Positions 40,854 to 52,228 of a stretch of DNA of 64,000 nt are shown here, one piece after another; the stretch's first letter is position 1, and every line of letters starts with the position of its first letter. Made by a program: the position numbers and the translations under genes. Source of the DNA: Patescibacteria group bacterium (GTDB lineage: Bacteria; Patescibacteriota; Microgenomatia; UBA1400; PJMF01); NCBI GenBank assembly GCA_016861085.1, contig BOKR01000001.1, positions 896,153 through 960,152 on the forward strand. The letters are read 5' to 3'. The notes under the pieces are model-generated. The model ran no database searches, was not told where the DNA came from, and was given only the letters and a program-made list of their open reading frames with translations.

Positions 40854-42122
40854 TTACTCTTTTAAGAGATTCATAGTGCTGTCTCTTTGTGCCATCTCTG
40901 CTTCAAAAGCATCAACTCTTTCTGAGAGCAATTTTTCCTGGTCTTCACCAAGCTCTGCTTCCATCCATTTGTTCTTGAATCGAGATAAATCACCAAGAGT
41001 GGTAAGTTTGTTTTCAACCAAATATGCTCTAGCGTCTTGTGATAATCCTTTGAAAGTATCAATCTCGTACTCTTCTTCACCAGTAACTTTGGATTTAACT
41101 TCACCCGATGCTGATTTGATTGTGATCTTGTATCCAGTTAGTTTGGCAGCTAAGCGAACATTTTGTCCGCCACGACCGATTGCTAATGAAAGTTGATCAT
41201 CTGGAGCAGTAACTTCAACAAGCTTTTCTGCTTCTTTAACATCAATTTTTAAACCCTCAGCTGGAGCAAGTGCACCTTGAATTAAAAGTTTGTTGTTGTC
41301 TGAAAATGGAATAATATCCAATTTTTCATTATTTAACTCTCTAATAACTTCTTGTACACGAACACCACGTTGTCCAACACAAGAGCCAACCGGGTCAACA
41401 CCATCTTGGGTAGATCGAACGGCTAATTTAGTTCTCACACCAGCTTCACGGGCAATCAATGCGATTTCAACTGTGCCTGCTGCAATTTCTGGAACTTCGC
41501 GTTCAAACAGCTTTGCAACCAATTGTTTGTCTGCTCTGGAAACAATAATTCGTTTGCCTTTGTGAGAATCACGAATTTCTTTAATTAGAACAGTAATACG
41601 GTTGTTCATTCTATAGAATTCACCACGCATTTGTTCTTCTGGTGGCATGTATCCTTGGCCTCTGCCAATATCTAAAATAACAGCTCTGCCATCCATTCTT
41701 AAAATTTGAGCATTCACCACTTCGCCAACTCTAGCTTCAAAATCTGCAATCACTTTGTCTTTTTCTGATTCTCTGATTTTTTGCAAAATAACCTGTTTTG
41801 CAGTTTGAGCAGCAATACGACCAAACCCAGCTGGTGTTACGTCTTGAGCCTTCTTTTCATCCCATTTGGTGATTTCACCAGTTTCTTCGTCTTTTTCAAT
41901 GATTGGGCATTTGAAAATTCTTGACTCACCAGTATCTTCGTCTAATTCGACAAAATAATATGACTCTTCTTCAAGATGTCCAAATTGCTTTCTGTACGCA
42001 GAAACTAAAGCCTGCTTGATTGCAGAGTAGATTGATGCTGGATCAATTTGTCTTTCATTAGCAATTTGATTAATTGCTGCAGCAAATTCAGTACGAACAA
42101 CATTTGAGCTTTGAGCTGACAT
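40854..42122 (-). CDS. nusA: Transcription termination/antitermination factor NusA
   Basis: N-terminal NusA domain, S1 and two KH regions (GRGGQNVRLAAKLTG), in the usual position upstream of infB. Confidence 0.9.
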   Translation of the reverse strand: MSAQSSNVVRTEFAAAINQIANERQIDPASIYSAIKQALVSAYRKQFGHLEEESYYFVELDEDTGESRIFKCPIIEKDEETGEITKWDEKKAQDVTPAGFGRIAAQTAKQVILQKIRESEKDKVIADFEARVGEVVNAQILRMDGRAVILDIGRGQGYMPPEEQMRGEFYRMNNRITVLIKEIRDSHKGKRIIVSRADKQLVAKLFEREVPEIAAGTVEIALIAREAGVRTKLAVRSTQDGVDPVGSCVGQRGVRVQEVIRELNNEKLDIIPFSDNNKLLIQGALAPAEGLKIDVKEAEKLVEVTAPDDQLSLAIGRGGQNVRLAAKLTGYKITIKSASGEVKSKVTGEEEYEIDTFKGLSQDARAYLVENKLTTLGDLSRFKNKWMEAELGEDQEKLLSERVDAFEAEMAQRDSTMNLLKE

Positions 42123-42262
42123 ATGTATTTCCCTTTATTTTTTGTTTCTTATAGTACTAATATTAATTAAACGTCAAGTTAAAAAAAAGAACCCGTTTTG
42201 CTTGAGTCCTTCCCGTTCAATCGATATAGGTGCATTATAACATACCTTTTGACTGAATTCAA

Positions 42263-42916
42263 TTAAATGCGCTTTTTTGCCAAGACACAATAATAGTCTC
42301 TTGAATCTTTCCAAAACTTTATTTTTATGAAGTTTGCTAAGTCAGAAAACAACAACTTTTTATTATAAATAAAATGTATAAGTCCTGTTTCGTCACCAAT
42401 CGTTGGTACATATGTATTTTCGGCAATCTTATCTGCTGTTTTGACTAAACAATATCTTACTTTTCCTTTAGAATATCTGCCACAAACTGTAATAAACAAA
42501 AAACCACCAGGTTTGAGAATCCTGTGAATCTCTGCAAGTGTCTTTTGAATTTGTTCTCTTTTATTATGTTGCAACACCTGGATACTAATAATCGCATCGA
42601 ATGAATTTTCAGCATATGGTAAAGACTTATAAATATCTCCAAGTGTCACTGTTAATTTAACCTTTTCTTTTTTTGCTTGATCTTTTGCAACCAATAAACC
42701 TTCTTCAGCGTTATCCATACCCCAAACTGAGAATCCCTCCTTAGCCAAAAAAAGTGCATTTCTGCCTGCGCCACATCCTAAATCGAGAATGTTTTTAGCT
42801 CCGTTCTCCTTGAAAAAGGTACTTAACCATGCCATATCTTCGTGAGGCTCAAGTATATCGTAGTAACTATATTTTTTTATTTTATTTTTATAAATCTTAT
42901 TCCATGCTGTGTTCAT
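42263..42916 (-). CDS. Class I SAM-dependent methyltransferase
   Basis: Motif I ILDLGCGAGRNALFLAKEG and motif II/post-I (VWGMDNAE…). Confidence 0.8.
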   Translation of the reverse strand: MNTAWNKIYKNKIKKYSYYDILEPHEDMAWLSTFFKENGAKNILDLGCGAGRNALFLAKEGFSVWGMDNAEEGLLVAKDQAKKEKVKLTVTLGDIYKSLPYAENSFDAIISIQVLQHNKREQIQKTLAEIHRILKPGGFLFITVCGRYSKGKVRYCLVKTADKIAENTYVPTIGDETGLIHFIYNKKLLFSDLANFIKIKFWKDSRDYYCVLAKKRI

Positions 42917-42950
42917 ATGTATATTATACGCCCCTTTTCCTGTCTTAAAC

Positions 42951-42990
42951 CAAAAAAAGCCGCAGGTTCATGAGTTCATGACCTGCGGCT
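42951..42990 (-). terminator. Strong rho-independent terminator closing the GC-rich operon
   Basis: A perfect 10-bp stem agccgcaggt/acctgcggct with a palindromic loop tcatgagttcatga. The A7 run on + is a U7 run after the stem on the minus transcript. Confidence 0.7.
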
Positions 42991-43024
42991 TACCACAGTA
43001 ACATCATTGGTCTTCGAAACTTCG

Positions 43025-44182
43025 CTATTGCATCTGAGTACGGAACTCACGAGCATTTTGAGCCATGCTTAATGGCCGAGCAAAATTTCGATCACCTCCT
43101 AACTGAATATTCACATGAATTAGGCTGAGTTTTCTTTCAGCTAACGCATGCGTAACTGCCCAACTTAACTTCTGAGCAGAATTGACTTGATAAACGGACT
43201 GGTAACCCATCAAAGCCGCGGTTTGAACGAAATGGGCCGACTGAGAAATTGAAGGCTCTTCAGAACAAGAGCCGTACGCACCGTTGTCAATGACGACATG
43301 CACCAGGTTGTTTGGACCATGGTGCCCGATGCTAACCAAGTTGCCGAAGTTTGTCAGGCAACTTGAATCGCCTTCAACTACTATGATCTGCTTTTCAGGC
43401 CGGGACACCGCAAAGCCCATTCCAATTGCGCTGGTAAGGCCGAAGCCGCCAGCATTGTAGAACTGATTTTGCGAATGGTGTCGGGCAAACAGCGAGCGAC
43501 TGATCAAACCCGTTGAAGAAATTAAGCCAACTTGCGCGGGTACTACTTGCCAGACGGCGCTCAAAGCTTCTTCTCGTAACAGCGTAGCATCGGGTTGGCG
43601 AAGGTCAACGATTTGGCCTGGAGCTTTGGTTTCGACTGAAGCAGACGTTGACACCTCTCCAGCAATTCCTTTGCTTTGTGTCCAGCCACGCTTTACCAAG
43701 ATCACTCCCGGTTTCTGCGTTGCTGACATTCCAGTTAGGCACTCACCGTACAAAGTTTCAGCATTGCTTTCAGCCAACACGCCATGCCACATACCGTACG
43801 CATTCAGCAACGGGATTGTTGCCGCACCTGTTGCGAAATGCTGAGGAGCTGTTTCGCCTTCAGCCCCGCGGTAGGTCACCAAAAACGGGATATCCATACC
43901 GCATGGAATGAGTAACGAGCCAATGTCATTGGATGCTACTAACATCCCGCTATTTTGCATGTAGACCAACGGTTTCTTTCCCGCCAGCCACATGCCTGCC
44001 GCGATACCAACTGCTTCCCGCTCATTAAGGCCAGGAGTGTGTAAAGGCATTTGCGACAATTGGTGGATAAAATGGCGTAACACCCCGCAGGGGACGCCTG
44101 TTGAGCAATCAATTCGGGATGCCCAACTTTGGATGAACCATTTGACTGGCCCATCTTGGACAATTTTGGTAAGGTCGTTCAT
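43025..44182 (-). CDS. ThDP-dependent decarboxylase of the phosphonopyruvate/sulfopyruvate decarboxylase (Ppd/ComDE) family, fused alpha+beta
   Basis: Pyr-domain block EREAVGIAAGMWLAGKKPLVYMQNSGMLVASN and PP-domain block VVEGDSSCLTNFGNLVSIG…VIDNGAYGS (GDG-x24-NN-like ThDP motif). GC is ~50%, against ~39% in the flanks. Confidence 0.7.
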   Translation of the reverse strand: MNDLTKIVQDGPVKWFIQSWASRIDCSTGVPCGVLRHFIHQLSQMPLHTPGLNEREAVGIAAGMWLAGKKPLVYMQNSGMLVASNDIGSLLIPCGMDIPFLVTYRGAEGETAPQHFATGAATIPLLNAYGMWHGVLAESNAETLYGECLTGMSATQKPGVILVKRGWTQSKGIAGEVSTSASVETKAPGQIVDLRQPDATLLREEALSAVWQVVPAQVGLISSTGLISRSLFARHHSQNQFYNAGGFGLTSAIGMGFAVSRPEKQIIVVEGDSSCLTNFGNLVSIGHHGPNNLVHVVIDNGAYGSCSEEPSISQSAHFVQTAALMGYQSVYQVNSAQKLSWAVTHALAERKLSLIHVNIQLGGDRNFARPLSMAQNAREFRTQMQ

Positions 44183-44191
44183 GGTTCACCT

Positions 44192-45259
44192 TTAGATTGG
44201 GTTATTGATCTTCACTCCAGCGTACTCACTGTACCAGGGGCTACGATAGTTGTCATAACCCAACGGCCGCAGTGTGGGACTGAAAATGCCTTCGACAATT
44301 TGACGCGCTTGCAGGTAATAATCCAGTGAATGCGCGTCTTGATGACGCAGTGCCACTTGATGTGGCTGATATACCTGCATGAGGTTAATCAGCGGATGCC
44401 GCGTTAAAACAGGCAGAAATTCACGAAAATGGGTGTCAATCGCAGGCAACCCATCAAGACCCAGGATATAGAGCATCGAGGTATTGAGCCCCTTTGCTTT
44501 CGCATGTCCCAGGATATCAATGTGTTGTTGCAACGAAACGCCTGACTTCCGACGCTTCATCAGCATTTCCCGGCGCTCGAAGCACTCAACGGTCTGGTAT
44601 AAGCTGAATTTGCCAGCTTCGGCTAATTGGTCCACAGCTTCAGTTGTTCTGATCTGTGAGCCAATGTACCGAATTTCTCCGGCAAAACCGAACTCGCCAA
44701 AAACCTTTTGCACCATGAGCAGATGTTGCAAACAGAGTTCATCTGTCCGAAAGCAACCGGTAACAACACCTATGCTTTCCATCTCGATATAGCTCTTGAC
44801 TAACCCTTCACGCAAAAACCCTTCTGCCGCCTTGCGAAGGTTCTCTTCCAAAAGAAGATTACTGAATTCTTCTGGAATTAACGAAAACGTTCCACAAAAC
44901 TTGCAACCGCGGCAACTGCTTCTGCTGTTAGAGTTGAGCGTCATTGCCCGGCCACTGTTTCTGATGTAAGTCTCAGAACAGGTATCCGGATGAATCGGAC
45001 TCGCACTTCCAATCAACTCGCCGCTCAGCCACACTTGTTCACCGTCATGGTGGAAAGGTGACTCTGGGTCAATTGTCAACGCAAAGAAAAAAGGCCAGTT
45101 GTGAATCGCGGGCACCAACCGAAACCGCCCACGACTCGTAATTGAGGTGTCAAACCCAGATGTTCCCATCAGGTTCAGACCCATCATTAAAACATCTACC
45201 AATGGCACATTGTGCCGACGAGCGTACACTTCAGCTTCTTGGATTGTTTGGAAAAACAT
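44192..45259 (-). CDS. Cys-motif protein, putative non-canonical radical-SAM/Fe-S enzyme (CX2CX2C)
   Basis: SSCRGCKFCGTF (confirmed in the DNA: tgc cgc ggt tgc aag ttt tgt). A downstream ILGLDGLPAID segment resembles the radical-SAM G(I/L)xxGxPGE element and additional Cys are present (GCFRTDELC). GC-rich like its neighbours. Confidence 0.4.
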   Translation of the reverse strand: MFFQTIQEAEVYARRHNVPLVDVLMMGLNLMGTSGFDTSITSRGRFRLVPAIHNWPFFFALTIDPESPFHHDGEQVWLSGELIGSASPIHPDTCSETYIRNSGRAMTLNSNSRSSCRGCKFCGTFSLIPEEFSNLLLEENLRKAAEGFLREGLVKSYIEMESIGVVTGCFRTDELCLQHLLMVQKVFGEFGFAGEIRYIGSQIRTTEAVDQLAEAGKFSLYQTVECFERREMLMKRRKSGVSLQQHIDILGHAKAKGLNTSMLYILGLDGLPAIDTHFREFLPVLTRHPLINLMQVYQPHQVALRHQDAHSLDYYLQARQIVEGIFSPTLRPLGYDNYRSPWYSEYAGVKINNPI

Positions 45260-45273
45260 GTTGCACCTTTGCT

Positions 45274-45843
45274 CTACTGAGCCAGAATAATTTTGCCTTC
45301 TAGCAATAGGATTTCAAGCGCTTCCTCGAGGACACGCTTATACGATTTTTCGTGGTCAAAGCCAAACTCGAGAGCTTGACTCAGATATTGCTGCAACCGT
45401 GGTTGAGTAACGACTCTTCCACAGTTACAATCCAATAAGATTTGGGCAATCAGAACTGTTTTACCAGTCCTGTTTGCTCCAGCACTGCAATGTATGTAAG
45501 TCGGGCCTTCGAGGCCAATTACCGTCTGGGCAGCAACAATGAATGAAGAAGCACTTTGCACTTCTAAGTCATAATGACGCATTCCTGCAGGTAACTGACT
45601 TCTAAGAAGTGCCAACTTCCTCGGCTCTTCCCCATACTTTGAATGTAGAGTCACTACGGTTTTCAAACCGAGTTTATTCCCCATTCTATTCAGTTGTTCT
45701 GCATTTGGCCAGGAGCCTCGATATAGAGTATCATTTACCATCCCAAAATTTCTGGGGAATTGGCCGCTAGAATCAGATCTCTGGCCGCTTGGTTCTAATA
45801 CTTGGATTGAGACTCCACCGATAAGAAACTCTACTGTTTTCAT
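45274..45843 (-). CDS. Protein-tyrosine/dual-specificity phosphatase-like protein (CX5R)
   Basis: P-loop IHCSAGANRTGK (HCxxGxxR[ST]) preceded by an aspartate-containing loop, at 189 aa. Confidence 0.65.
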   Translation of the reverse strand: MKTVEFLIGGVSIQVLEPSGQRSDSSGQFPRNFGMVNDTLYRGSWPNAEQLNRMGNKLGLKTVVTLHSKYGEEPRKLALLRSQLPAGMRHYDLEVQSASSFIVAAQTVIGLEGPTYIHCSAGANRTGKTVLIAQILLDCNCGRVVTQPRLQQYLSQALEFGFDHEKSYKRVLEEALEILLLEGKIILAQ

Positions 45844-45998
45844 AGTTTTACCTCTGTCTCCTCTGGAGGAGGAAAAGTTTCTTCAACAACACCATCCTCG
45901 AAGACTATTATTTTGTCTTCTTCTGGACCAGGTATTGTGTAAGAAATAAGTAGAGAAATCAACAAAAAAACAATCATTAAGGGGTCATTAAGGTTCAT
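45840..45998 (-). CDS. Small hydrophobic peptide (52 aa) translationally coupled to the phosphatase gene
   Basis: MNLNDPLMIVFLLISLLISYTIPGPEEDKIIVFEDGVVEETFPPPEETEVKL. One TM helix and an acidic tail. Its stop overlaps the next start in an ATGA arrangement. It is below the ORF-track size cutoff. Confidence 0.3.
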   Translation of the reverse strand: MNLNDPLMIVFLLISLLISYTIPGPEEDKIIVFEDGVVEETFPPPEETEVKL

Positions 45999-46123
45999 AG
46001 TTCTCACCTTCAACTAAGTTTTCAATTAGGATGTTAAAGAGCAATACATACTTAATATGTATTACCAACCTATAATTATATAACTAAGTACCTTAATTGC
46101 AAGTGAACAGTCTGGAAAATCAG

Positions 46124-46636
46124 TTAAACAGTTTTACTTCTAAGTTGAAACGCAGCTAATGAAAAAATCGTTTTTCTAATCCAAGTGAAATTACTCAAAA
46201 GAATATAGGTATATCCAAAAAACAAATCCCCTATTAAAGTTCTTGAGTAAAAAGGGATCGCTACCGTATAGCAGAGCAACAAATCAGCAATAGTATGGCC
46301 ATACCAGTACCACCACACACCTAAGTTAGAAATCAAAAAAAATAAAAATGAAGCAAATGGAAGAAAAACCAATTGTCGTTTCAAACTATTCTTTGATAGT
46401 TTTCCTAAAACTGCATAACACGCAAATCCGATATACGTTAACCAAAATCCTGGATACATACCCTTAACTAACACATCAAAAGCAACAATGGATACGGCAA
46501 ATAACAATGAATTGCCAAAAAAACCATAACTACCAAGTGGACTTATATTTGCCGGCAGAACATTCAAACGGGATACAAACACCAAAACAGCCGTGGGGAT
46601 TTGTCTTAAAATGTTAGTTCGCTGAAATTGCTTCAT
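46124..46636 (-). CDS. Small polytopic membrane protein, possible ECF-type S-component/vitamin transporter
   Basis: ~170 aa with 5-6 TM helices and a Trp/Tyr-rich segment (VWWYWYGH). Encoded immediately downstream of a DUF4430 gene. Confidence 0.3.
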   Translation of the reverse strand: MKQFQRTNILRQIPTAVLVFVSRLNVLPANISPLGSYGFFGNSLLFAVSIVAFDVLVKGMYPGFWLTYIGFACYAVLGKLSKNSLKRQLVFLPFASFLFFLISNLGVWWYWYGHTIADLLLCYTVAIPFYSRTLIGDLFFGYTYILLSNFTWIRKTIFSLAAFQLRSKTV

Positions 46637-47009
46637 ATACAAATTTGATCGTATCACCTTTTTCTAATATTGTTTGACTTACGCCTTGTTCTGCATATTC
46701 ACCATTTAGGTAAAATGCCCAATAATTCTGACTATTCCCAGCTAATCCATTAATGCTTGTTACAAATTTTCCAGCATCACCAAAGTCTTGTGTTTCAATT
46801 GTTGCGTTTGCTTCAATCAACTCTAAGGCTATCTGCCCACTTTGGGTGGCACTAAACTCAAATTCAGTTTGTTGAGCAACTGCAGAATCAATGTCTTCAT
46901 TTACAGATATTCGCGTTTGTGCTGGTCTATTTGAAACTAAAATAAAAGCTGTAAATAACAGCAGAGCACTGATTGCTACCGTTGTTACCAGTAAAAATTT
47001 ACTTTTCAT
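46614..47009 (-). CDS. DUF4430-domain secreted protein
   Basis: Signal/TM anchor followed by GKFVTSINGLAGNSQNYWAFYLNGEY, which is the DUF4430 hallmark. Confidence 0.5.
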   Translation of the reverse strand: MKSKFLLVTTVAISALLLFTAFILVSNRPAQTRISVNEDIDSAVAQQTEFEFSATQSGQIALELIEANATIETQDFGDAGKFVTSINGLAGNSQNYWAFYLNGEYAEQGVSQTILEKGDTIKFVYEAISAN

Positions 47010-47030
47010 ATTGTTCCCTACAACTTTTCT

Positions 47031-47903
47031 TTATAACCCGGCTTTTCTTAACTCTTCAACTGCTTTTTTTTGCTGGCGATTCAATTTTTCTGGCAACTCA
47101 ACAATAAATCGGACATACAGATCACCTTTACCATGACCTTGCACCTGTTGCACCCCTTCACCTCGCAATCGCACCATGGTGTGTGATTGTGTCCCTGCTC
47201 TCACTTTTAGTTTCAGTGTTTGATCAACAGTTTCAACTTCTGTTGTCCCACCTAAAAGCGCAAGTGAAATCGGTATTAGCTCATCAACAAATAAATCATA
47301 ACCTTCGCGTCTGAATCTTGGATGAGTCTTTACATTTATAGAAACATCAAACTCACTAAACCTAATCCTAGTGCCGTCATTTGCTCCTGCTGGAACTTTG
47401 ATTTTGTGTCTTTTACCTTCGATCTCGACTTCTTTTGTTACACCCTTAATTGCTTCTAAAAATTCAATTGTTAGAGAATATCGTGGACGCGCCTGAGCTG
47501 CTCTGCCAAATCCACCCATACCGCCACCAAAAAATTGTTCAAAAATATCAAATGGATCACCAAAATCCATGTTTTCAAATGGATTTGCGCCTCCTGAAGA
47601 ATACGTGTATGTAAATGGCCCACTCTGCCTTGCACCACCAGCAAATGGATTACCGCCCATTCCACCAGATGGATCAAAAGCCGCGTGGCCAAACTGATCA
47701 TACGTTTTACGTTTCTGATCATCGGACAATACTTGGTAAGCCTCGTTAATTTCTTTGAATTTAGTCTCAGCTTCAGCTTTATTGCTCTGATTTTTGTCTG
47801 GGTGCCATTTTAGTGCAGCTTTACGATATGCAGACTTAATATCGGCTTTTGTTGCACCTTTTTTTATCCCTAAAATCTCGTAGTAATCTCGTTTGGTTGC
47901 CAT
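47031..47903 (-). CDS. dnaJ: DnaJ-family co-chaperone (J domain + G/F region + C-terminal domains, no Zn-finger; CbpA-like)
   Basis: J domain [33 protein letters not shown], a G/F-rich segment and C-terminal beta domains. No CxxCxGxG repeats. Confidence 0.85.
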
Positions 47904-47963
47904 AACAGTACTTGATTTTACCAGTAACAATTGGAATTGTTAAGCAGACAATTAGTGAAACTG

Positions 47964-48791
47964 CTAATAAATTTTGAGCACTTCAATAATGCCGTCATTT
48001 TCCTGATTTGCAACTACAAAATCAGCGATTTCTTTTAGTTCAGTTGGTGCATTAGCCATGGAAATTTTTAGTCCACATGCAGAAAGTAAAGGGTAATCAT
48101 TATAACTATCACCAACTCCAATAATTTCTTGAGGATCGAAGTCCATTATTTTTGCATATGCCAAAAGAGCCATGTGCTTACCGGCTCCCCCTTCATTGAT
48201 ATCAATTCCAACTCCCTTTTTGCTCGAAGTTTTAACAACATGTAAGTCAGGAAATAGATTGATGATTTTTTCAAGAACTGGCTCAACTAATTCCAAAGGA
48301 TACAGTGGCGGAATTACTGCTTTTGGAACGCCATCTAACGGCATATCCTTGATATCTAGAAAGTCTGCTCCTGCACCGAATTCTGCGTCCACTTTTCCGT
48401 CAATGGAATACACGTATTGGCCGCGTTCTGCAGCAAAGAAAAAATCTAGTTCACTAAGATGTTCGATAAGCCTTGCGAGTGTGTCAGGGTTGATATGTTT
48501 TGCCCACAATATTTCATCAGTCTCTGTTGAAATAATCTCAGAACCTCCTCTAACAATAACTGGATGTTTTAAACCTAATTCTTTACAAGTTTTTTCCAAG
48601 ATTCCAGGGTAACCTCTCCCTGTTGCTATAGAAAACACGCCGCCATTTTTTACAAATTCCCGTATCGCATCTTTGGCTGCTTGTGTCATTTGCTGACTGT
48701 GGTCAACCAGAGTCCCATCAAAATCGGAAACAATGGCTTTATATTTTTGCATATGGTCCTTTATACCAAAAACTCGCAGTGTTTGAAACAA
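47964..48791 (-). CDS. HAD-superfamily Cof-type hydrolase (sugar phosphatase)
   Basis: Motif I VSDFDGTLV, motif II SIATGR and motif IV GDSYNDYPLL. Confidence 0.8.
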   Translation of the reverse strand: MFQTLRVFGIKDHMQKYKAIVSDFDGTLVDHSQQMTQAAKDAIREFVKNGGVFSIATGRGYPGILEKTCKELGLKHPVIVRGGSEIISTETDEILWAKHINPDTLARLIEHLSELDFFFAAERGQYVYSIDGKVDAEFGAGADFLDIKDMPLDGVPKAVIPPLYPLELVEPVLEKIINLFPDLHVVKTSSKKGVGIDINEGGAGKHMALLAYAKIMDFDPQEIIGVGDSYNDYPLLSACGLKISMANAPTELKEIADFVVANQENDGIIEVLKIY

Positions 48792-48820
48792 CCGCGAGTT
48801 TTTTCGAGTCTTAATAAAAT

Positions 48821-50749
48821 TTACTCGTTTACAACTTCACCTTCTTCAGCGCCTTCTGTTTTCTTTGCGTTTTCAGAGGATTCATCTTGTGAACCAGCTT
48901 GCGAGCCGGCTGCTCCACTTTGAGCTTGAGCTTTTTGCATAGCTTCACCGATTTTTTGAGCTGATTTGAACATCTCATCAGTTGCTTTGTCTAACTCTTC
49001 TTTGGTGACATCATCTTTGGCAGCCAACTCTTTGAGTTTCTTTGCGTTTTCAGCAATTTCTTCTTTGTCTTTGGCTTCAAGCTTATCACCATATTCTTCA
49101 AGTTGCTTCTCAATCTCAAAGGCAACAGAGTTGGCATGGTTTTTAGCTTCAATCAACTCTTTCTTCTTCTTATCTTCTTCAGCATGAGCTTCCGCATCTT
49201 GCTTCATTTTTTCAACTTCTTCGTCAGACAAGTTAGTTGAGTTTTGAATGCTAATTTTCTGCTCTTTGCCAGTGTTTTTCTCTTTTGCAGTTACATGCAA
49301 AATACCATTCGAGTCGATATCAAATGTCACTTCAATCTGTGGCATACCTCTTCGTGCTGGTGGGATTCCATCAAGAATGAATCTACCAAGAGACTTGTTA
49401 TCAGCAGCCATTTCGCGCTCACCTTGTAGCACATTGATTTCAACTTGAGTTTGGTTGTCTGCGGCAGTAGAAAATACCTGAGATTTACTGGTTGGAATTG
49501 TTGTGTTTCTCTCAATTAGCGGAGTTCTGATTCCACCTAAAGTTTCAAGTCCAAGAGTTAATGGAGTCACGTCTAACAAGACAACATCAGTCACATCTCC
49601 ACCAATCACACCTGCTTGGATTGCAGCACCAACAGCCACAACTTCGTCTGGATTCACACCTTGATGTGGTTTCTTGCCAAAGAATTTTTCAACTTCGCTG
49701 ACCACTTTTGGCATACGGGTTTGACCACCAACCAAAACGACTTCGTTAATATCTTTTGCAGAAATGCCAGCATCTTTGAGTGCTTTTTCGACTGGCTTGA
49801 AGGTTTTTTTGATTAAGTCATCAACAATTTCTTCAAGTTTTGCACGAGTCAAAGTCATAGTTAAGTGCAAAGGACCGTCTGACCCTTGAGTAATGAAAGG
49901 CTGATTGATTTCGGTAGATGCAGCACTTGAAAGCTCAATTTTAGCTTTTTCTGCACTGTCTTTTACCCGTTGCAAGGCCTGAGGATCTTTGGAAAGATCA
50001 ACGCCATTTTCTTTTTTGAACTCAGCAATAATCCATTCAATAATTTGACTGTCGAAGTCATCACCACCAAGGAATGTGTCTCCATTGGTTGATTTGACTT
50101 CAAAGACACCATCGCCAATTTCTAAGATAGAAATATCAAAAGTACCACCTCCAAGGTCATACACCGCGATAGTACTACTGCCTTTTTTATCAAGGCCGTA
50201 AGCAAGGGCTGCCGCAGTTGGCTCGTTGACAATTCGTTCAACTGTTAAACCAGCAATTTCACCTGCTTGCTTGGTTGCTTGTCGTTGGGCATCATCAAAA
50301 TATGCAGGAACAGTGATAACGGCTCTGGTTACTTTGCCACCCAAATAACTTTCAGCATCAGCTTTTGCCTTTGCTAGAATCTTGGCGGAAATTTCTTGTG
50401 GAGTGTATTGTTTGCCATCAATCTTAACAACAGCCATGCCGTCTTTGCCTTCTGCAACTTCGTAGGCAACATGTTTAATAGCATTTTGAACACCTGCTGC
50501 TCTGAGTTTACCACCCATAAAACGTTTCACAGAGTTGACAGTTTTCTTTGGATTTAAAACCATTTGGCGTTTGGCAACATCACCAACAGAAACATCACTA
50601 CCTTTGAATGAAACTATAGAAGGGAATGTATTTCTACCTTCTGCGGTAGGAATAACTTTGGCAGTACCACCTTCCATAACAGCAACTGCTGAGTTGGTGG
50701 TACCTAAGTCGATACCAATGATTTTACCTGTAGAATTTGAATTAGACAT
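48821..50749 (-). CDS. dnaK: Molecular chaperone DnaK (Hsp70)
   Basis: [28 protein letters not shown] and a C-terminal EEVD-like acidic tail. Confidence 0.97.
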
Positions 50750-50854
50750 TGTCTGCTCCTTTTTCTAAATTTGATTTTGTACTTATTTTGGCCACATTGT
50801 TAGTGTTACACTGCGCTTGTGCAGACACTTGATGCACCGTTTCGACTTCCAATT

Positions 50855-50881
50855 TTAGCAAACAATTAATTAGACTGCTAG
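50855..50881. promoter_or_regulatory. Weak CIRCE-like inverted repeat between grpE and dnaK
   Basis: TTAGCAaac-N9-GAcTGCTAg against the consensus TTAGCACTC-N9-GAGTGCTAA, with 4 mismatches. Confidence 0.2.
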
Positions 50882-50952
50882 TAGCAATTTAACCTGGAGA
50901 CTGCTAATCGGTGAAAAATTATGAACTGACTAGCAACTCCTGAAGACAATAC

Positions 50953-51465
50953 CTAGTCCAAAATTACTTTTGCGTGTTGGATAACTTCGTCATTGAGGGT
51001 GTACCCATCCTTGACGATTTTGACAACCTTTTGACCCTGTTCCCCTTTGTCTGCGACTTCCATTGTGGTAACATCAAATTCTTTTCCAAGTGCTTCAATT
51101 TTTTTGAGTCCATTTTGTTCTAGCGCCTGCCAAAGTTGGGAGACAACCATTGATAAGCCAGCATCCTTGAGTTGTTCACTAGCCAAAGTTAAGTGGCCCA
51201 AAGGCTGTAGTAAATCTTCAACAAAATTGCGAGCCGCTAGGCGAGCAACTTTGCTTCGCTCTTCATTAGTACGACGTACTAAGTTTTGATAATCTGCCAA
51301 AGCCAATTGCTCTTTACGCTTCGCGTTAGCGAGCTGATTTGATAAATCTAAAACCTGTTCAGAGAGCTCACTAATCGTTTGCTCCATCTGTTCAAAATTG
51401 TGCTCAATTTTTTCGACTGGATCTTCATTCAAATATTGTGTTTGCTTTAGCTTTGAGTCTTTCAT
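50953..51465 (-). CDS. grpE: Nucleotide exchange factor GrpE
   Basis: Coiled-coil N-terminus and a C-terminal GrpE beta domain, positioned between hrcA and dnaK. Confidence 0.9.
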   Translation of the reverse strand: MKDSKLKQTQYLNEDPVEKIEHNFEQMEQTISELSEQVLDLSNQLANAKRKEQLALADYQNLVRRTNEERSKVARLAARNFVEDLLQPLGHLTLASEQLKDAGLSMVVSQLWQALEQNGLKKIEALGKEFDVTTMEVADKGEQGQKVVKIVKDGYTLNDEVIQHAKVILD

Positions 51466-51474
51466 ATGTAAATT

Positions 51475-52197
51475 TTATTCAACAATTTCTTTGATTAAAT
51501 TTCGCACATATTTCATCATTGGAATTATGTATGCATAGTCAAATCTACTTGAGCCAAGTAAGGCAATATGTACAGGCTGACCATCAACAGAAAAAGACAT
51601 ATAAATAATTCCAATTGGTAGTAAATCTCGGTTTCCAAGCTCTGGACCATACACAACTTGAACTAAGTTCTCATTTGTGCTTGAATCAAAAATCTCTTCA
51701 AGCATTTTCTCCTCTTCAATTAATCGTAGTACATTGCGCATTACCTTAATATCAAAAAATTCTGGCATTTGAAGCAAATTTGCATATCCAGAATGGTACA
51801 AATGGTATTCATCTGACAATGTAATTGCTAAAGCTTGGGATTTATCTGCTAAAACCTTGGTTATTTGAAACAGCATTTGATCTAACTTGTCTCTACTATT
51901 CCATATTTTTTCTTTTGCTGAAACTTCATCAGCTACGGAAAGGTCGCGCTCTTTCATGAGTTCATTAACATACAGCTTCATAGCTACCGAAGTTGGTACA
52001 CGACCAGCACTACTATGACTCTTGTTAAGATATCCCTGCTTGGTCAGCTGTGCCATCTCATTACGAATTGTTGCAGGAGAAACACCAATTGAGTACTTTT
52101 TGTCGACAGTTTCCGAACCAACTGGTTCGGCAGTTGAAATAAACTCTTCGATGACTGCACGTAAGATTTGTACTTGGCGGGCGGTTAAATCTATCAT
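51475..52197 (-). CDS. hrcA: Heat-inducible transcription repressor HrcA
   Basis: N-terminal winged helix LTARQVQILRAVIEEFISTAEPVGSETV. The start was taken at the second Met so that the CIRCE operator lies upstream. Confidence 0.8.
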   Translation of the reverse strand: MIDLTARQVQILRAVIEEFISTAEPVGSETVDKKYSIGVSPATIRNEMAQLTKQGYLNKSHSSAGRVPTSVAMKLYVNELMKERDLSVADEVSAKEKIWNSRDKLDQMLFQITKVLADKSQALAITLSDEYHLYHSGYANLLQMPEFFDIKVMRNVLRLIEEEKMLEEIFDSSTNENLVQVVYGPELGNRDLLPIGIIYMSFSVDGQPVHIALLGSSRFDYAYIIPMMKYVRNLIKEIVE

Positions 52198-52201
52198 GGT
52201 A

Positions 52202-52228
52202 TTAGCAATCATATCTGTAGTGTGCTAA
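52202..52228. promoter_or_regulatory. CIRCE operator (HrcA binding site)
   Basis: TTAGCAaTC-N9-GtGTGCTAA, with 2 mismatches to TTAGCACTC-N9-GAGTGCTAA, immediately upstream of hrcA. Confidence 0.55.

Follow-up and report, generated by a model that had tools for sequence, protein, structure and literature searches.

The 64,000-nucleotide stretch of a Patescibacteria group bacterium genome analysed here (contig BOKR01000001.1, positions 896,153 to 960,152; 'the window') encodes on its minus strand a protein with three cysteines spaced CX2CX2C. The near-universal cluster loop of radical S-adenosylmethionine (SAM) enzymes is CX3CX2C. The locus raises the question whether the short spacing is real, and whether a protein that carries it is a radical SAM enzyme or an iron-sulphur (Fe-S) protein of another kind. 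A first-pass annotation had read S-S-C-R-G-C-K-F-C-G, with its 2/2 spacing, from the DNA. This transcription and its coordinates are exact: codons 116 to 122 are TGC CGC GGT TGC AAG TTT TGT and give C-R-G-C-K-F-C (window 44894-44914). The context of the triad in the protein is NSNSRSSCRGCKFCGT (NSNSRSSC116RGC119KFC122GT), and the residues after C122 are GTFSLIP. The downstream ILGLDGLP element that the annotation had pointed out is located at residues 265-272. All cysteines of the 355-residue protein are at positions 94, 116, 119, 122, 169, 176 and 226, and its C-terminus reads ...GVKINNPI. The features of the gene (called rSAM-like below) are as follows.

44192-45259, minus strand: predicted radical-SAM-fold protein of an uncharacterised family, 355 amino acids, open reading frame (ORF) with ATG start
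44894-44914, minus strand: Cys triad C116-R-G-C119-K-F-C122 (CX2CX2C), read from the sequence; presumed [4Fe-4S] ligands
45264-45270, minus strand: Shine-Dalgarno-like AAAGGTG, 5 nt upstream of the rSAM-like ATG

Spacing of the cysteine triad across the family

A rare spacing could be explained by an indel that sequencing or assembly had introduced into a gene with canonical CX3CX2C, or by a decaying pseudo-enzyme. Apart from the rarity of the motif, nothing speaks for either. A word-indexed search of 5.8 billion proteins gave 37 homologues, nearly all of them unannotated metagenomic proteins, which were aligned (alignment A1; 34-100% identity, independent assemblies). When 1.84 billion cluster representatives were searched exhaustively with a profile, 354 family members were returned at E <= 1e-3, 114 of them at E <= 1e-30. 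The uncharacterised family spans 354 clusters at 50% identity, and 110 full-length representatives of 50%-identity clusters were used as the census set. Every sequence of A1 has C119 and C122, and 36 of 37 also have C116, within a near-invariant block (T-L-N-S-N-x-R-S-x-C-x-G-C-x-F-C-G-T). Despite the range of identities, 29 columns of A1 are invariant and 32 nearly invariant, a pattern of conservation that indicates purifying selection. Among the 110 representatives, 93 carry CX2CX2C and 12 carry CX3CX2C, and each cysteine of the triad is kept in 107-108. These sequences come from independent genomes and metagenomes of candidate phyla radiation (CPR) bacteria, DPANN archaea, Firmicutes and Treponema. 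A protein identical to that of the window was found on six contigs, and the ORF is intact and preceded by a ribosome-binding site. Carried by 36 of the 37 close homologues and by 93 of the 110 representatives, CX2CX2C is a conserved and selected feature of a sizeable family and no sequencing error. The first-pass annotation had named canonical spacing in the homologues as the sign of an indel, and the close and mid-distance homologues keep the short form instead. The census refutes an indel or a pseudo-enzyme, and the chance that either accounts for the spacing is practically nil.

A single close homologue, P0027, has a tyrosine in place of the first cysteine. Both P0027 and its sister P0026 carry FCRT instead of FCGT after the triad, and P0027 may be a decaying copy or the result of a sequencing error in its contig. 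In the window, a consensus scan returned a terminator-like hairpin (44903-44919, minus strand) that falls inside the codons of the triad. It is a by-product of the repeated TGC/GCA codons, and a function is very unlikely.

The canonical motif is carried mostly by the most distant members of the family (P0129, P0139, P0145, P0150, P0159, P0160, P0162, P0166, P0179 and P0181). A wide joint alignment of CX2 and CX3 members (A2) places the three cysteines of both forms in the same columns, and the CX2 members show a single-residue gap after the first Cys-x. Family-wide, only C116, C119, C122, E225 and G267 are invariant in A2, together with an aromatic residue at position 121, and the triad accounts for the only invariant cysteine columns. 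Comparison of A1, which represents the CX2 clade, with an alignment of ten CX3 relatives (A3) by hhalign gave a probability of 100% and an E-value of 9e-51 over 339 columns, N-terminal domain included. It placed a single one-residue gap, between the first two cysteines. These alignments indicate that the CX2CX2C loop is derived from the canonical loop by loss of one residue after strand beta-1. In a rough, midpoint-rooted neighbour-joining tree, CX3 lineages form the deep branches, with a second, independent CX2 clade (P0148-P0173) in their midst. Two CX3 members, P0058 (CIGKCTFC) and P0078 (CKGGCRFC), are nested in the main CX2 clade. Canonical CX3CX2C is thus limited to deep sister lineages and these two nested members. 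The tree suggests, with the reservation due to its roughness and rooting, that loop length has switched more than once, and from such repeated changes it can be argued that both lengths serve the same role.

Deviations of the radical SAM loop as such are not new. QueE, for instance, carries CX14CX2C. RadicalSAM.org, a resource restricted to CX3CX2C enzymes that excludes ThiC, Dph2 and PhnJ, records variants in which CX2C is preceded by CX4, CX5, CX6, CX7, CX8, CX9 or CX11, each of these being an expansion, with the CX5CX2C of HmdB/HcgA among them (PMC9477430). As in these variants, only the length of the first spacer is altered in the window family and CX2C is retained; unlike them, the alteration makes the spacer shorter than the canonical one. 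With expansions already on record, the contraction itself is only a modest surprise. In the open-access full-text literature, CX2CX2C together with 'radical SAM' gave only ferredoxin or unrelated uses, and we found no description there of a motif contraction, of the family or of its gene pairing described below, although an earlier mention elsewhere is possible.

Predicted fold and SAM-binding positions

The structure of the protein was modelled with AlphaFold2 on the basis of A1, with a mean predicted local distance difference test score (pLDDT) of 89.8 and a predicted template modelling score (pTM) of 0.89. The model shows an N-terminal domain of two helices and a beta-sheet (residues 1 to about 105), followed by alternating strands and helices that form a predicted core of the kind expected of the superfamily, a partial (beta/alpha)6 or full triosephosphate isomerase (TIM) barrel. 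The triad lies directly after strand 105-108. A Foldseek search with the model matched LipA of M. tuberculosis (E 7e-8). The partial TIM barrel of radical SAM type proposed in the first-pass annotation is supported at the level of the predicted fold. Its alternative, a different Fe-S fold entirely, is unsupported, because the radical SAM-fold model is confident and the Foldseek match is to LipA.

The positions in the model that may correspond to known SAM-binding motifs, and the N-terminal domain, are located as follows.

44945-45259, minus strand: N-terminal helix and beta-sheet domain of the model, residues 1-105, with R43, R45, D92, Y98 and R100 conserved
44750-44761, minus strand: T167-G168-C169-F170 at the C-terminal end of strand beta-2 (162-166), putative GGE position
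44570-44593, minus strand: T223-V-E225-C-F227-E-R-R230 at the end of strand beta-4, putative ribose-motif position
44453-44470, minus strand: Y264-I-L-G267-L-D269 on and after strand beta-5 (259-266), resembling GxIxGxxE; the ILGLDGLP element

Conservation at these positions among the 110 representatives is high, with T167 in 99, G168 in 99, C169 in 85 and F170 in 96. E225 is invariant and R230 nearly so, G267 is invariant, and Y264 occurs in 103 of 110. For the GGE, ribose and GxIxGxxE motifs the protein offers positional counterparts only (TGC(F), E225 and YILGLD), none of which matches the consensus exactly. From position in the model and conservation, it is plausible that the ends of beta-2, beta-4 and beta-5 are equivalent to the SAM motifs. 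The residue before the third cysteine (position 121; CXphiC) is F in 101 and Y in 2 of 110 representatives. Three universally conserved cysteines would suit a site-differentiated cluster that leaves one iron open to SAM. Two further cysteines are clade-specific: C94, in 65 of 110 representatives, and C169. The N-terminal domain, presumed to bind the substrate, is also present in the CX3CX2C sister clade, and C94 within it is a cysteine of the subfamily. A set of conserved basic residues (R43, R45, R100, R113, R230, K238, R319 and R339) suggests, as far as conservation can tell, a polyanionic substrate.

Compared with canonical radical SAM proteins (PF04055 / IPR007197), the window protein has in common the predicted fold, the three-cysteine loop right after beta-1, the aromatic residue before the third cysteine and conserved polar or acidic residues where beta-2, beta-4 and beta-5 end, and it is homologous to sister clades that carry the canonical motif. 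It differs in a first spacer of two instead of three residues, in TGC for GGE, in a score below the Pfam gathering threshold and in the family-specific N-terminal domain of about 105 residues. Given these likenesses, the protein is best described, from its sequence and predicted structure, as a member of a radical SAM clade with a CX2CX2C loop. It is remote from LipA/LIAS and from the BioB, HydG, ThiH, NosL, PylB and MqnE group, with sequence identities of 10-16%. None of its seven cysteines forms the N-terminal CX4CX5C auxiliary-cluster motif of LipA, the NCBIfam models of LipA, BioB and ThiH do not match it, and its N-terminal domain and gene context are unlike those of this group. ThiC (CX2CX4C) and Dph2 also depart from CX3CX2C. 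Neither of the two takes its cluster ligands from the canonical beta-1 loop, and Dph2 also differs in fold (PMC4389238). The loop of the window protein, on the other hand, is in the canonical place on a predicted canonical fold.

Public labels for the family are mixed. The Sellimonas member KYG86271.1 is automatically annotated as 'radical SAM protein', and the Treponema member WP_021687687.1 and members from Nanoarchaeota metagenome-assembled genomes (MAGs) are called 'hypothetical'. PF04055 matches 20 of the 37 close homologues at E <= 0.01. From this and the Sellimonas annotation it follows that the databases partly recognise the relationship to the superfamily. The CX3CX2C loop is the signature by which the superfamily is defined and mined, and mining based on the motif or on thresholds misses such enzymes. 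The large natural CX2 clade and its canonical kin offer a system in which loop length can be related to cluster geometry, SAM orientation and redox tuning.

Pairing with thiamine diphosphate enzymes and proposed chemistry

The rSAM-like gene is the second of four tightly spaced genes on the minus strand, which are preceded by a promoter-like site.

46075-46102, minus strand: promoter-like TTGCAA-16-TATAAT, 10/12, a consensus match only; upstream of the four-gene operon
45274-45843, minus strand: gene 1, Cys-based phosphatase, PFA-DSP/Siw14-like ('PTP-like'), with HCSAGANRTG = CX5R; PF03162, 31.7 bits
43025-44182, minus strand: gene 3, thiamine diphosphate (ThDP) decarboxylase related to phosphonopyruvate/sulfopyruvate decarboxylase ('Ppd-like'); PF02775
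42263-42916, minus strand: gene 4 (last), class I SAM-dependent methyltransferase, TehB-like, syntenic in most CPR/DPANN loci

Gene neighbourhoods were compared across 59 related loci from GTDB species genomes and metagenome assemblies. A ThDP enzyme, either Ppd-like or phosphoketolase-like, was found within 8 kb in every related locus with enough flanking DNA. It is mostly the next gene, at a distance of -35 to +6 nt (overlaps of 4-35 nt). In DPANN and CPR hosts, among them Nanoarchaeota, Woesearchaeota, Parvarchaeota, Saccharibacteria, Jorgensenbacteria and Falkowbacteria, the rSAM-like gene is followed by a Ppd-like gene, at times split into alpha and beta, and a TehB-like methyltransferase is nearby in most. 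Frequent additions in these loci are PTP-like and HAD phosphatases and a protein of about 200 amino acids without family match. The second group of hosts comprises gut Firmicutes/Bacilli MAGs, Christensenella, Sellimonas intestinalis and Treponema lecithinolyticum ATCC 700332. Their loci have no Ppd-like gene and instead encode a phosphoketolase-family ThDP enzyme of 650-750 amino acids, which usually overlaps the rSAM-like stop codon. Here the companions are two PHP phosphoesterases, GrpB, an HAD phosphatase and a LysR regulator. The methyltransferase is not present in the Firmicutes loci. The position directly upstream is often taken by a small protein with a DAC domain or by a GGDEF protein that stands alone. 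Several gene fusions tie these neighbours together: GrpB (UPF0157, nucleotidyltransferase fold), otherwise a conserved stand-alone operon member in the Firmicutes loci, is fused to the rSAM-like N-terminus in P0052, P0062 and P0064, and in CPR loci a DAC domain is fused to the methyltransferase (L020, L023) or to Ppd-beta (L017). The sister clades are without a ThDP partner, and their neighbours (unknown proteins, another radical SAM gene, GyrA) are uninformative as to function.

The module spans ultra-small CPR bacteria, DPANN archaea, human-gut Firmicutes and oral Treponema. Its strict ThDP pairing points to an undescribed pathway in organisms of otherwise minimal metabolism. As it is present in the cultured Sellimonas intestinalis and Treponema lecithinolyticum ATCC 700332, the module is directly testable.

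The reading that we consider probable is that the window protein is a divergent radical SAM member with a loop shortened to CX2CX2C, working as an obligate pair with the adjoining ThDP enzyme. C116, C119 and C122 would be the ligands of three of the irons in a [4Fe-4S] cluster, and SAM would bind to the remaining one, with F121 packing against the adenine and the remaining contacts coming from T167-G168-C169, E225 and Y264-x-x-G267-x-D269. That the triad binds a [4Fe-4S] cluster which in turn binds and cleaves SAM is highly plausible. Ferredoxins classically use CX2CX2C to enclose three of the irons of a cubane, so the shorter loop poses no chemical problem. On reduction, the cluster would cleave SAM and start radical chemistry on a strongly anionic substrate, as inferred from the conserved Arg and Lys residues and from the phosphatases (PTP-like, HAD, PHP) of the operons. 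The substrate is probably phosphorylated, possibly a nucleotide or a sugar phosphate, and would be held by the Arg/Lys-rich N-terminal domain and the barrel. The ThDP enzyme, usually encoded immediately downstream and translationally coupled, would be the obligate partner. Enzymes of either ThDP class require a carbonyl adjacent to the bond that is cleaved, and such carbonyl groups are made by radical SAM dehydrogenases and dehydratases such as BtrN, anSME, AprD4 and viperin. With low confidence, we favour a sequence in which the radical step installs or exposes a carbonyl and the ThDP enzyme breaks the adjoining C-C bond, after which the methyltransferase and phosphatases would finish the product. 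Alternatives to this sequence are an MqnE-type radical addition to an enolpyruvyl group, a Ppd substrate made independently of phosphoenolpyruvate (PEP) mutase, and a ThDP enamine as the dedicated reductant of the cluster.

Several observations weigh against this reading. The Cys loop and the residues that follow it (111-135) are the weakest region of the model, with a pLDDT of 57-60, although a low value is as expected for a cluster loop modelled in its apo form. The comparison with PF04055 suggested in the first-pass annotation gave a divided result: the window protein reaches 21.9 bits, below the gathering score of 29.5, and its alignment begins only at profile position 10, after the first cysteine, whereas the CX3 relatives P0129 (42.5 bits), P0181 (34.2) and P0183 (41.4) pass. 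No NCBIfam model matches the protein at E <= 1, and searches of PDB sequences with the single protein and with a profile returned only adenylate kinase 7 and uL23 at E of about 0.1. The GGE position is occupied by TGC, and C94 or C169, both conserved in the main clade, could in principle give a fourth ligand. At the level of the pathway, the reading draws on gene neighbourhood only. A common substrate logic is not obvious, because the ThDP partners are of different families with different known chemistries.

The possible fourth ligand leads to an explanation that we regard as unlikely, namely that the radical SAM scaffold holds an Fe-S cluster and generates no 5'-deoxyadenosyl radical. C169 or C94 would complete the ligation, and the protein would serve the ThDP enzyme as an electron-transfer or polar partner, by analogy with the PFOR (pyruvate:ferredoxin oxidoreductase)-type oxidation of hydroxyethyl-ThDP or with the TsrM-like non-radical use of the fold. 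It is favoured by the conservation of both cysteines and the place of C169 at the GGE position, by the tight coupling to the ThDP gene with often overlapping reading frames, by the Pfam score below threshold, and by the fact that CX2CX2C is the classical ferredoxin way to bind three irons. However, C94 and C169 lack conservation in the CX3 sister clades and in part of the second CX2 clade, and the triad is invariant. The CX2CX2CX3CP motif of 2x[4Fe-4S] ferredoxins shares its CX2CX2C spacing with the window protein, but the latter has neither the CX3CP continuation with its Cys-Pro fourth ligand nor a Fer4 Pfam match, and its fold is completely different. Features expected of SAM binding are retained, namely the aromatic residue in front of the last cysteine and the acidic or polar residues where beta-4 and beta-5 end. 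CX3 and CX2 also occur within a single homologous family, in which loop length apparently switched more than once in the rough tree.

The short loop might instead re-orient SAM so that another C-S bond is cut. The result would be the 3-amino-3-carboxypropyl radical known from Dph2 and ArsL, or else methyl chemistry, and the protein would then count as a non-canonical radical SAM enzyme. Loop geometry sets the orientation of SAM in Dph2 (as cited in bioRxiv 10.1101/2024.02.01.577332). In the CPR/DPANN operon the enzyme has a TehB/ArsM-like methyltransferase as its partner, just as ArsM accompanies ArsL. On the other hand, the non-canonical radical SAM enzyme ArsL, itself partnered by a methyltransferase, has a canonical CxxxCxxC and an RCCLKC tail (bioRxiv 10.1101/2024.02.01.577332), and the window protein has neither this tail nor an NCBIfam match. 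That CX3 members are nested in the CX2 clade speaks for a loop length without effect on function, and the Firmicutes loci have no methyltransferase partner. In view of these points, re-orientation of SAM seems very unlikely. An ArsL-like arsinothricin enzyme in particular was rejected: the RCCLKC tail, the canonical motif and a match to NF040542 or any other NCBIfam model are all missing.

A bolder proposal is also very unlikely to hold. Here, rSAM-like protein and ThDP partner would form an unrecognised two-enzyme module, a radical route, independent of PEP mutase, to a 3-heteroatom-substituted pyruvate (C-P, C-S or C-As) or to a 2-oxo-acid nucleoside. Such a route is thinkable because in CPR/DPANN loci the rSAM-like gene holds the place of PEP mutase upstream of a Ppd-family gene. 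It might run through an MqnE-type addition of 5'-deoxyadenosyl to an enolpyruvyl group, followed by decarboxylation, methylation and dephosphorylation, and the Firmicutes version would feed the phosphoketolase-like enzyme instead. The arrangement resembles the known pair of PEP mutase and phosphonopyruvate decarboxylase in that the Ppd-family gene lies right downstream of, and coupled to, a presumed substrate supplier, with a methyltransferase and a phosphatase nearby. It differs in that the upstream gene encodes a protein of predicted radical SAM fold, the Ppd-like protein stays below the TIGR03297 cutoff and the Firmicutes partner is phosphoketolase-like. The PEP mutase motif EDKx5NS was found neither in the 64-kb window nor in the 59 related loci scanned, and a classical phosphonate cluster was rejected on this ground.

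Two further ideas were also dismissed. Thiamine biosynthesis or salvage, suggested by the ThDP partners, was rejected since neither a thiamine pyrophosphate (TPP) riboswitch nor, in the gene neighbourhoods, any thi genes were seen. An Rfam scan of window 41000-48000 and seven Firmicutes/Treponema loci returned no riboswitch or other family. For anti-phage defence, PADLOC gave no match to the rSAM-like, Ppd-like or PTP-like protein and only a generic match to the methyltransferase. Among 2.9 million viral contigs there was no relative of the rSAM-like protein.

Operon members and surrounding genes

In the window, the Ppd-like gene starts 9 nt after the rSAM-like stop codon, and the AAAGGTG heptamer upstream of the rSAM-like gene also precedes its start codon. 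The Ppd-like protein scores 244.2 bits against TIGR03297 (cutoff 312.5), and its closest PDB sequences are the putative Ppd alpha and beta subunits of 9iz3. Its public record, GIK84314.1, reads 'phosphonopyruvate decarboxylase'. As there is no PEP mutase nearby, this label is probably over-annotated, and together with the score below cutoff the annotation is probably too specific. The PTP-like phosphatase matches TpbA and Siw14 among PDB sequences, and homologues of it occur in loci L009, L014 and L018.

Some neighbours in the related loci were also seen in detail. The small protein of about 150 amino acids upstream of the rSAM-like gene in several Firmicutes loci is named 'DAC domain-containing protein' in UniProt and has no Pfam match; coordinates of DAC proteins and fusions are L020 12157-13257, L023 2613-3728, L017 2011-2895 and L050 9512-9970. 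The protein of about 200 amino acids, without Pfam or NCBIfam match, lies beside the pair of rSAM-like and Ppd-like genes in nine loci (L004 7229-7948, L017 2954-3559 and seven other CPR/DPANN loci). By eye it shows a Cys...His...Asp pattern reminiscent of transglutaminase-like enzymes, and it is absent from the window. In the second CX2 clade (P0148, P0164), the rSAM-like gene is followed by another radical SAM gene (L063 2422-3819, L064 3489-4454), which is of the B12-binding type in L063 and has a weak Fer4_12 match in L064.

Directly upstream of the operon in the window lie genes for a DUF6580 membrane protein (46124-46657, minus strand) and a DUF4430 protein with a signal peptide (46614-47009, minus strand). 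The two genes overlap by 44 nt and look like a coupled membrane/secreted pair. Beyond them is a heat-shock block, hrcA-grpE-dnaK-dnaJ (47031-52212, minus strand), in which a gene for a Cof-type HAD phosphatase (47964-48791) separates dnaK from dnaJ. The public records of NusA and DnaK of the window are GIK84312 and GIK84322, respectively.

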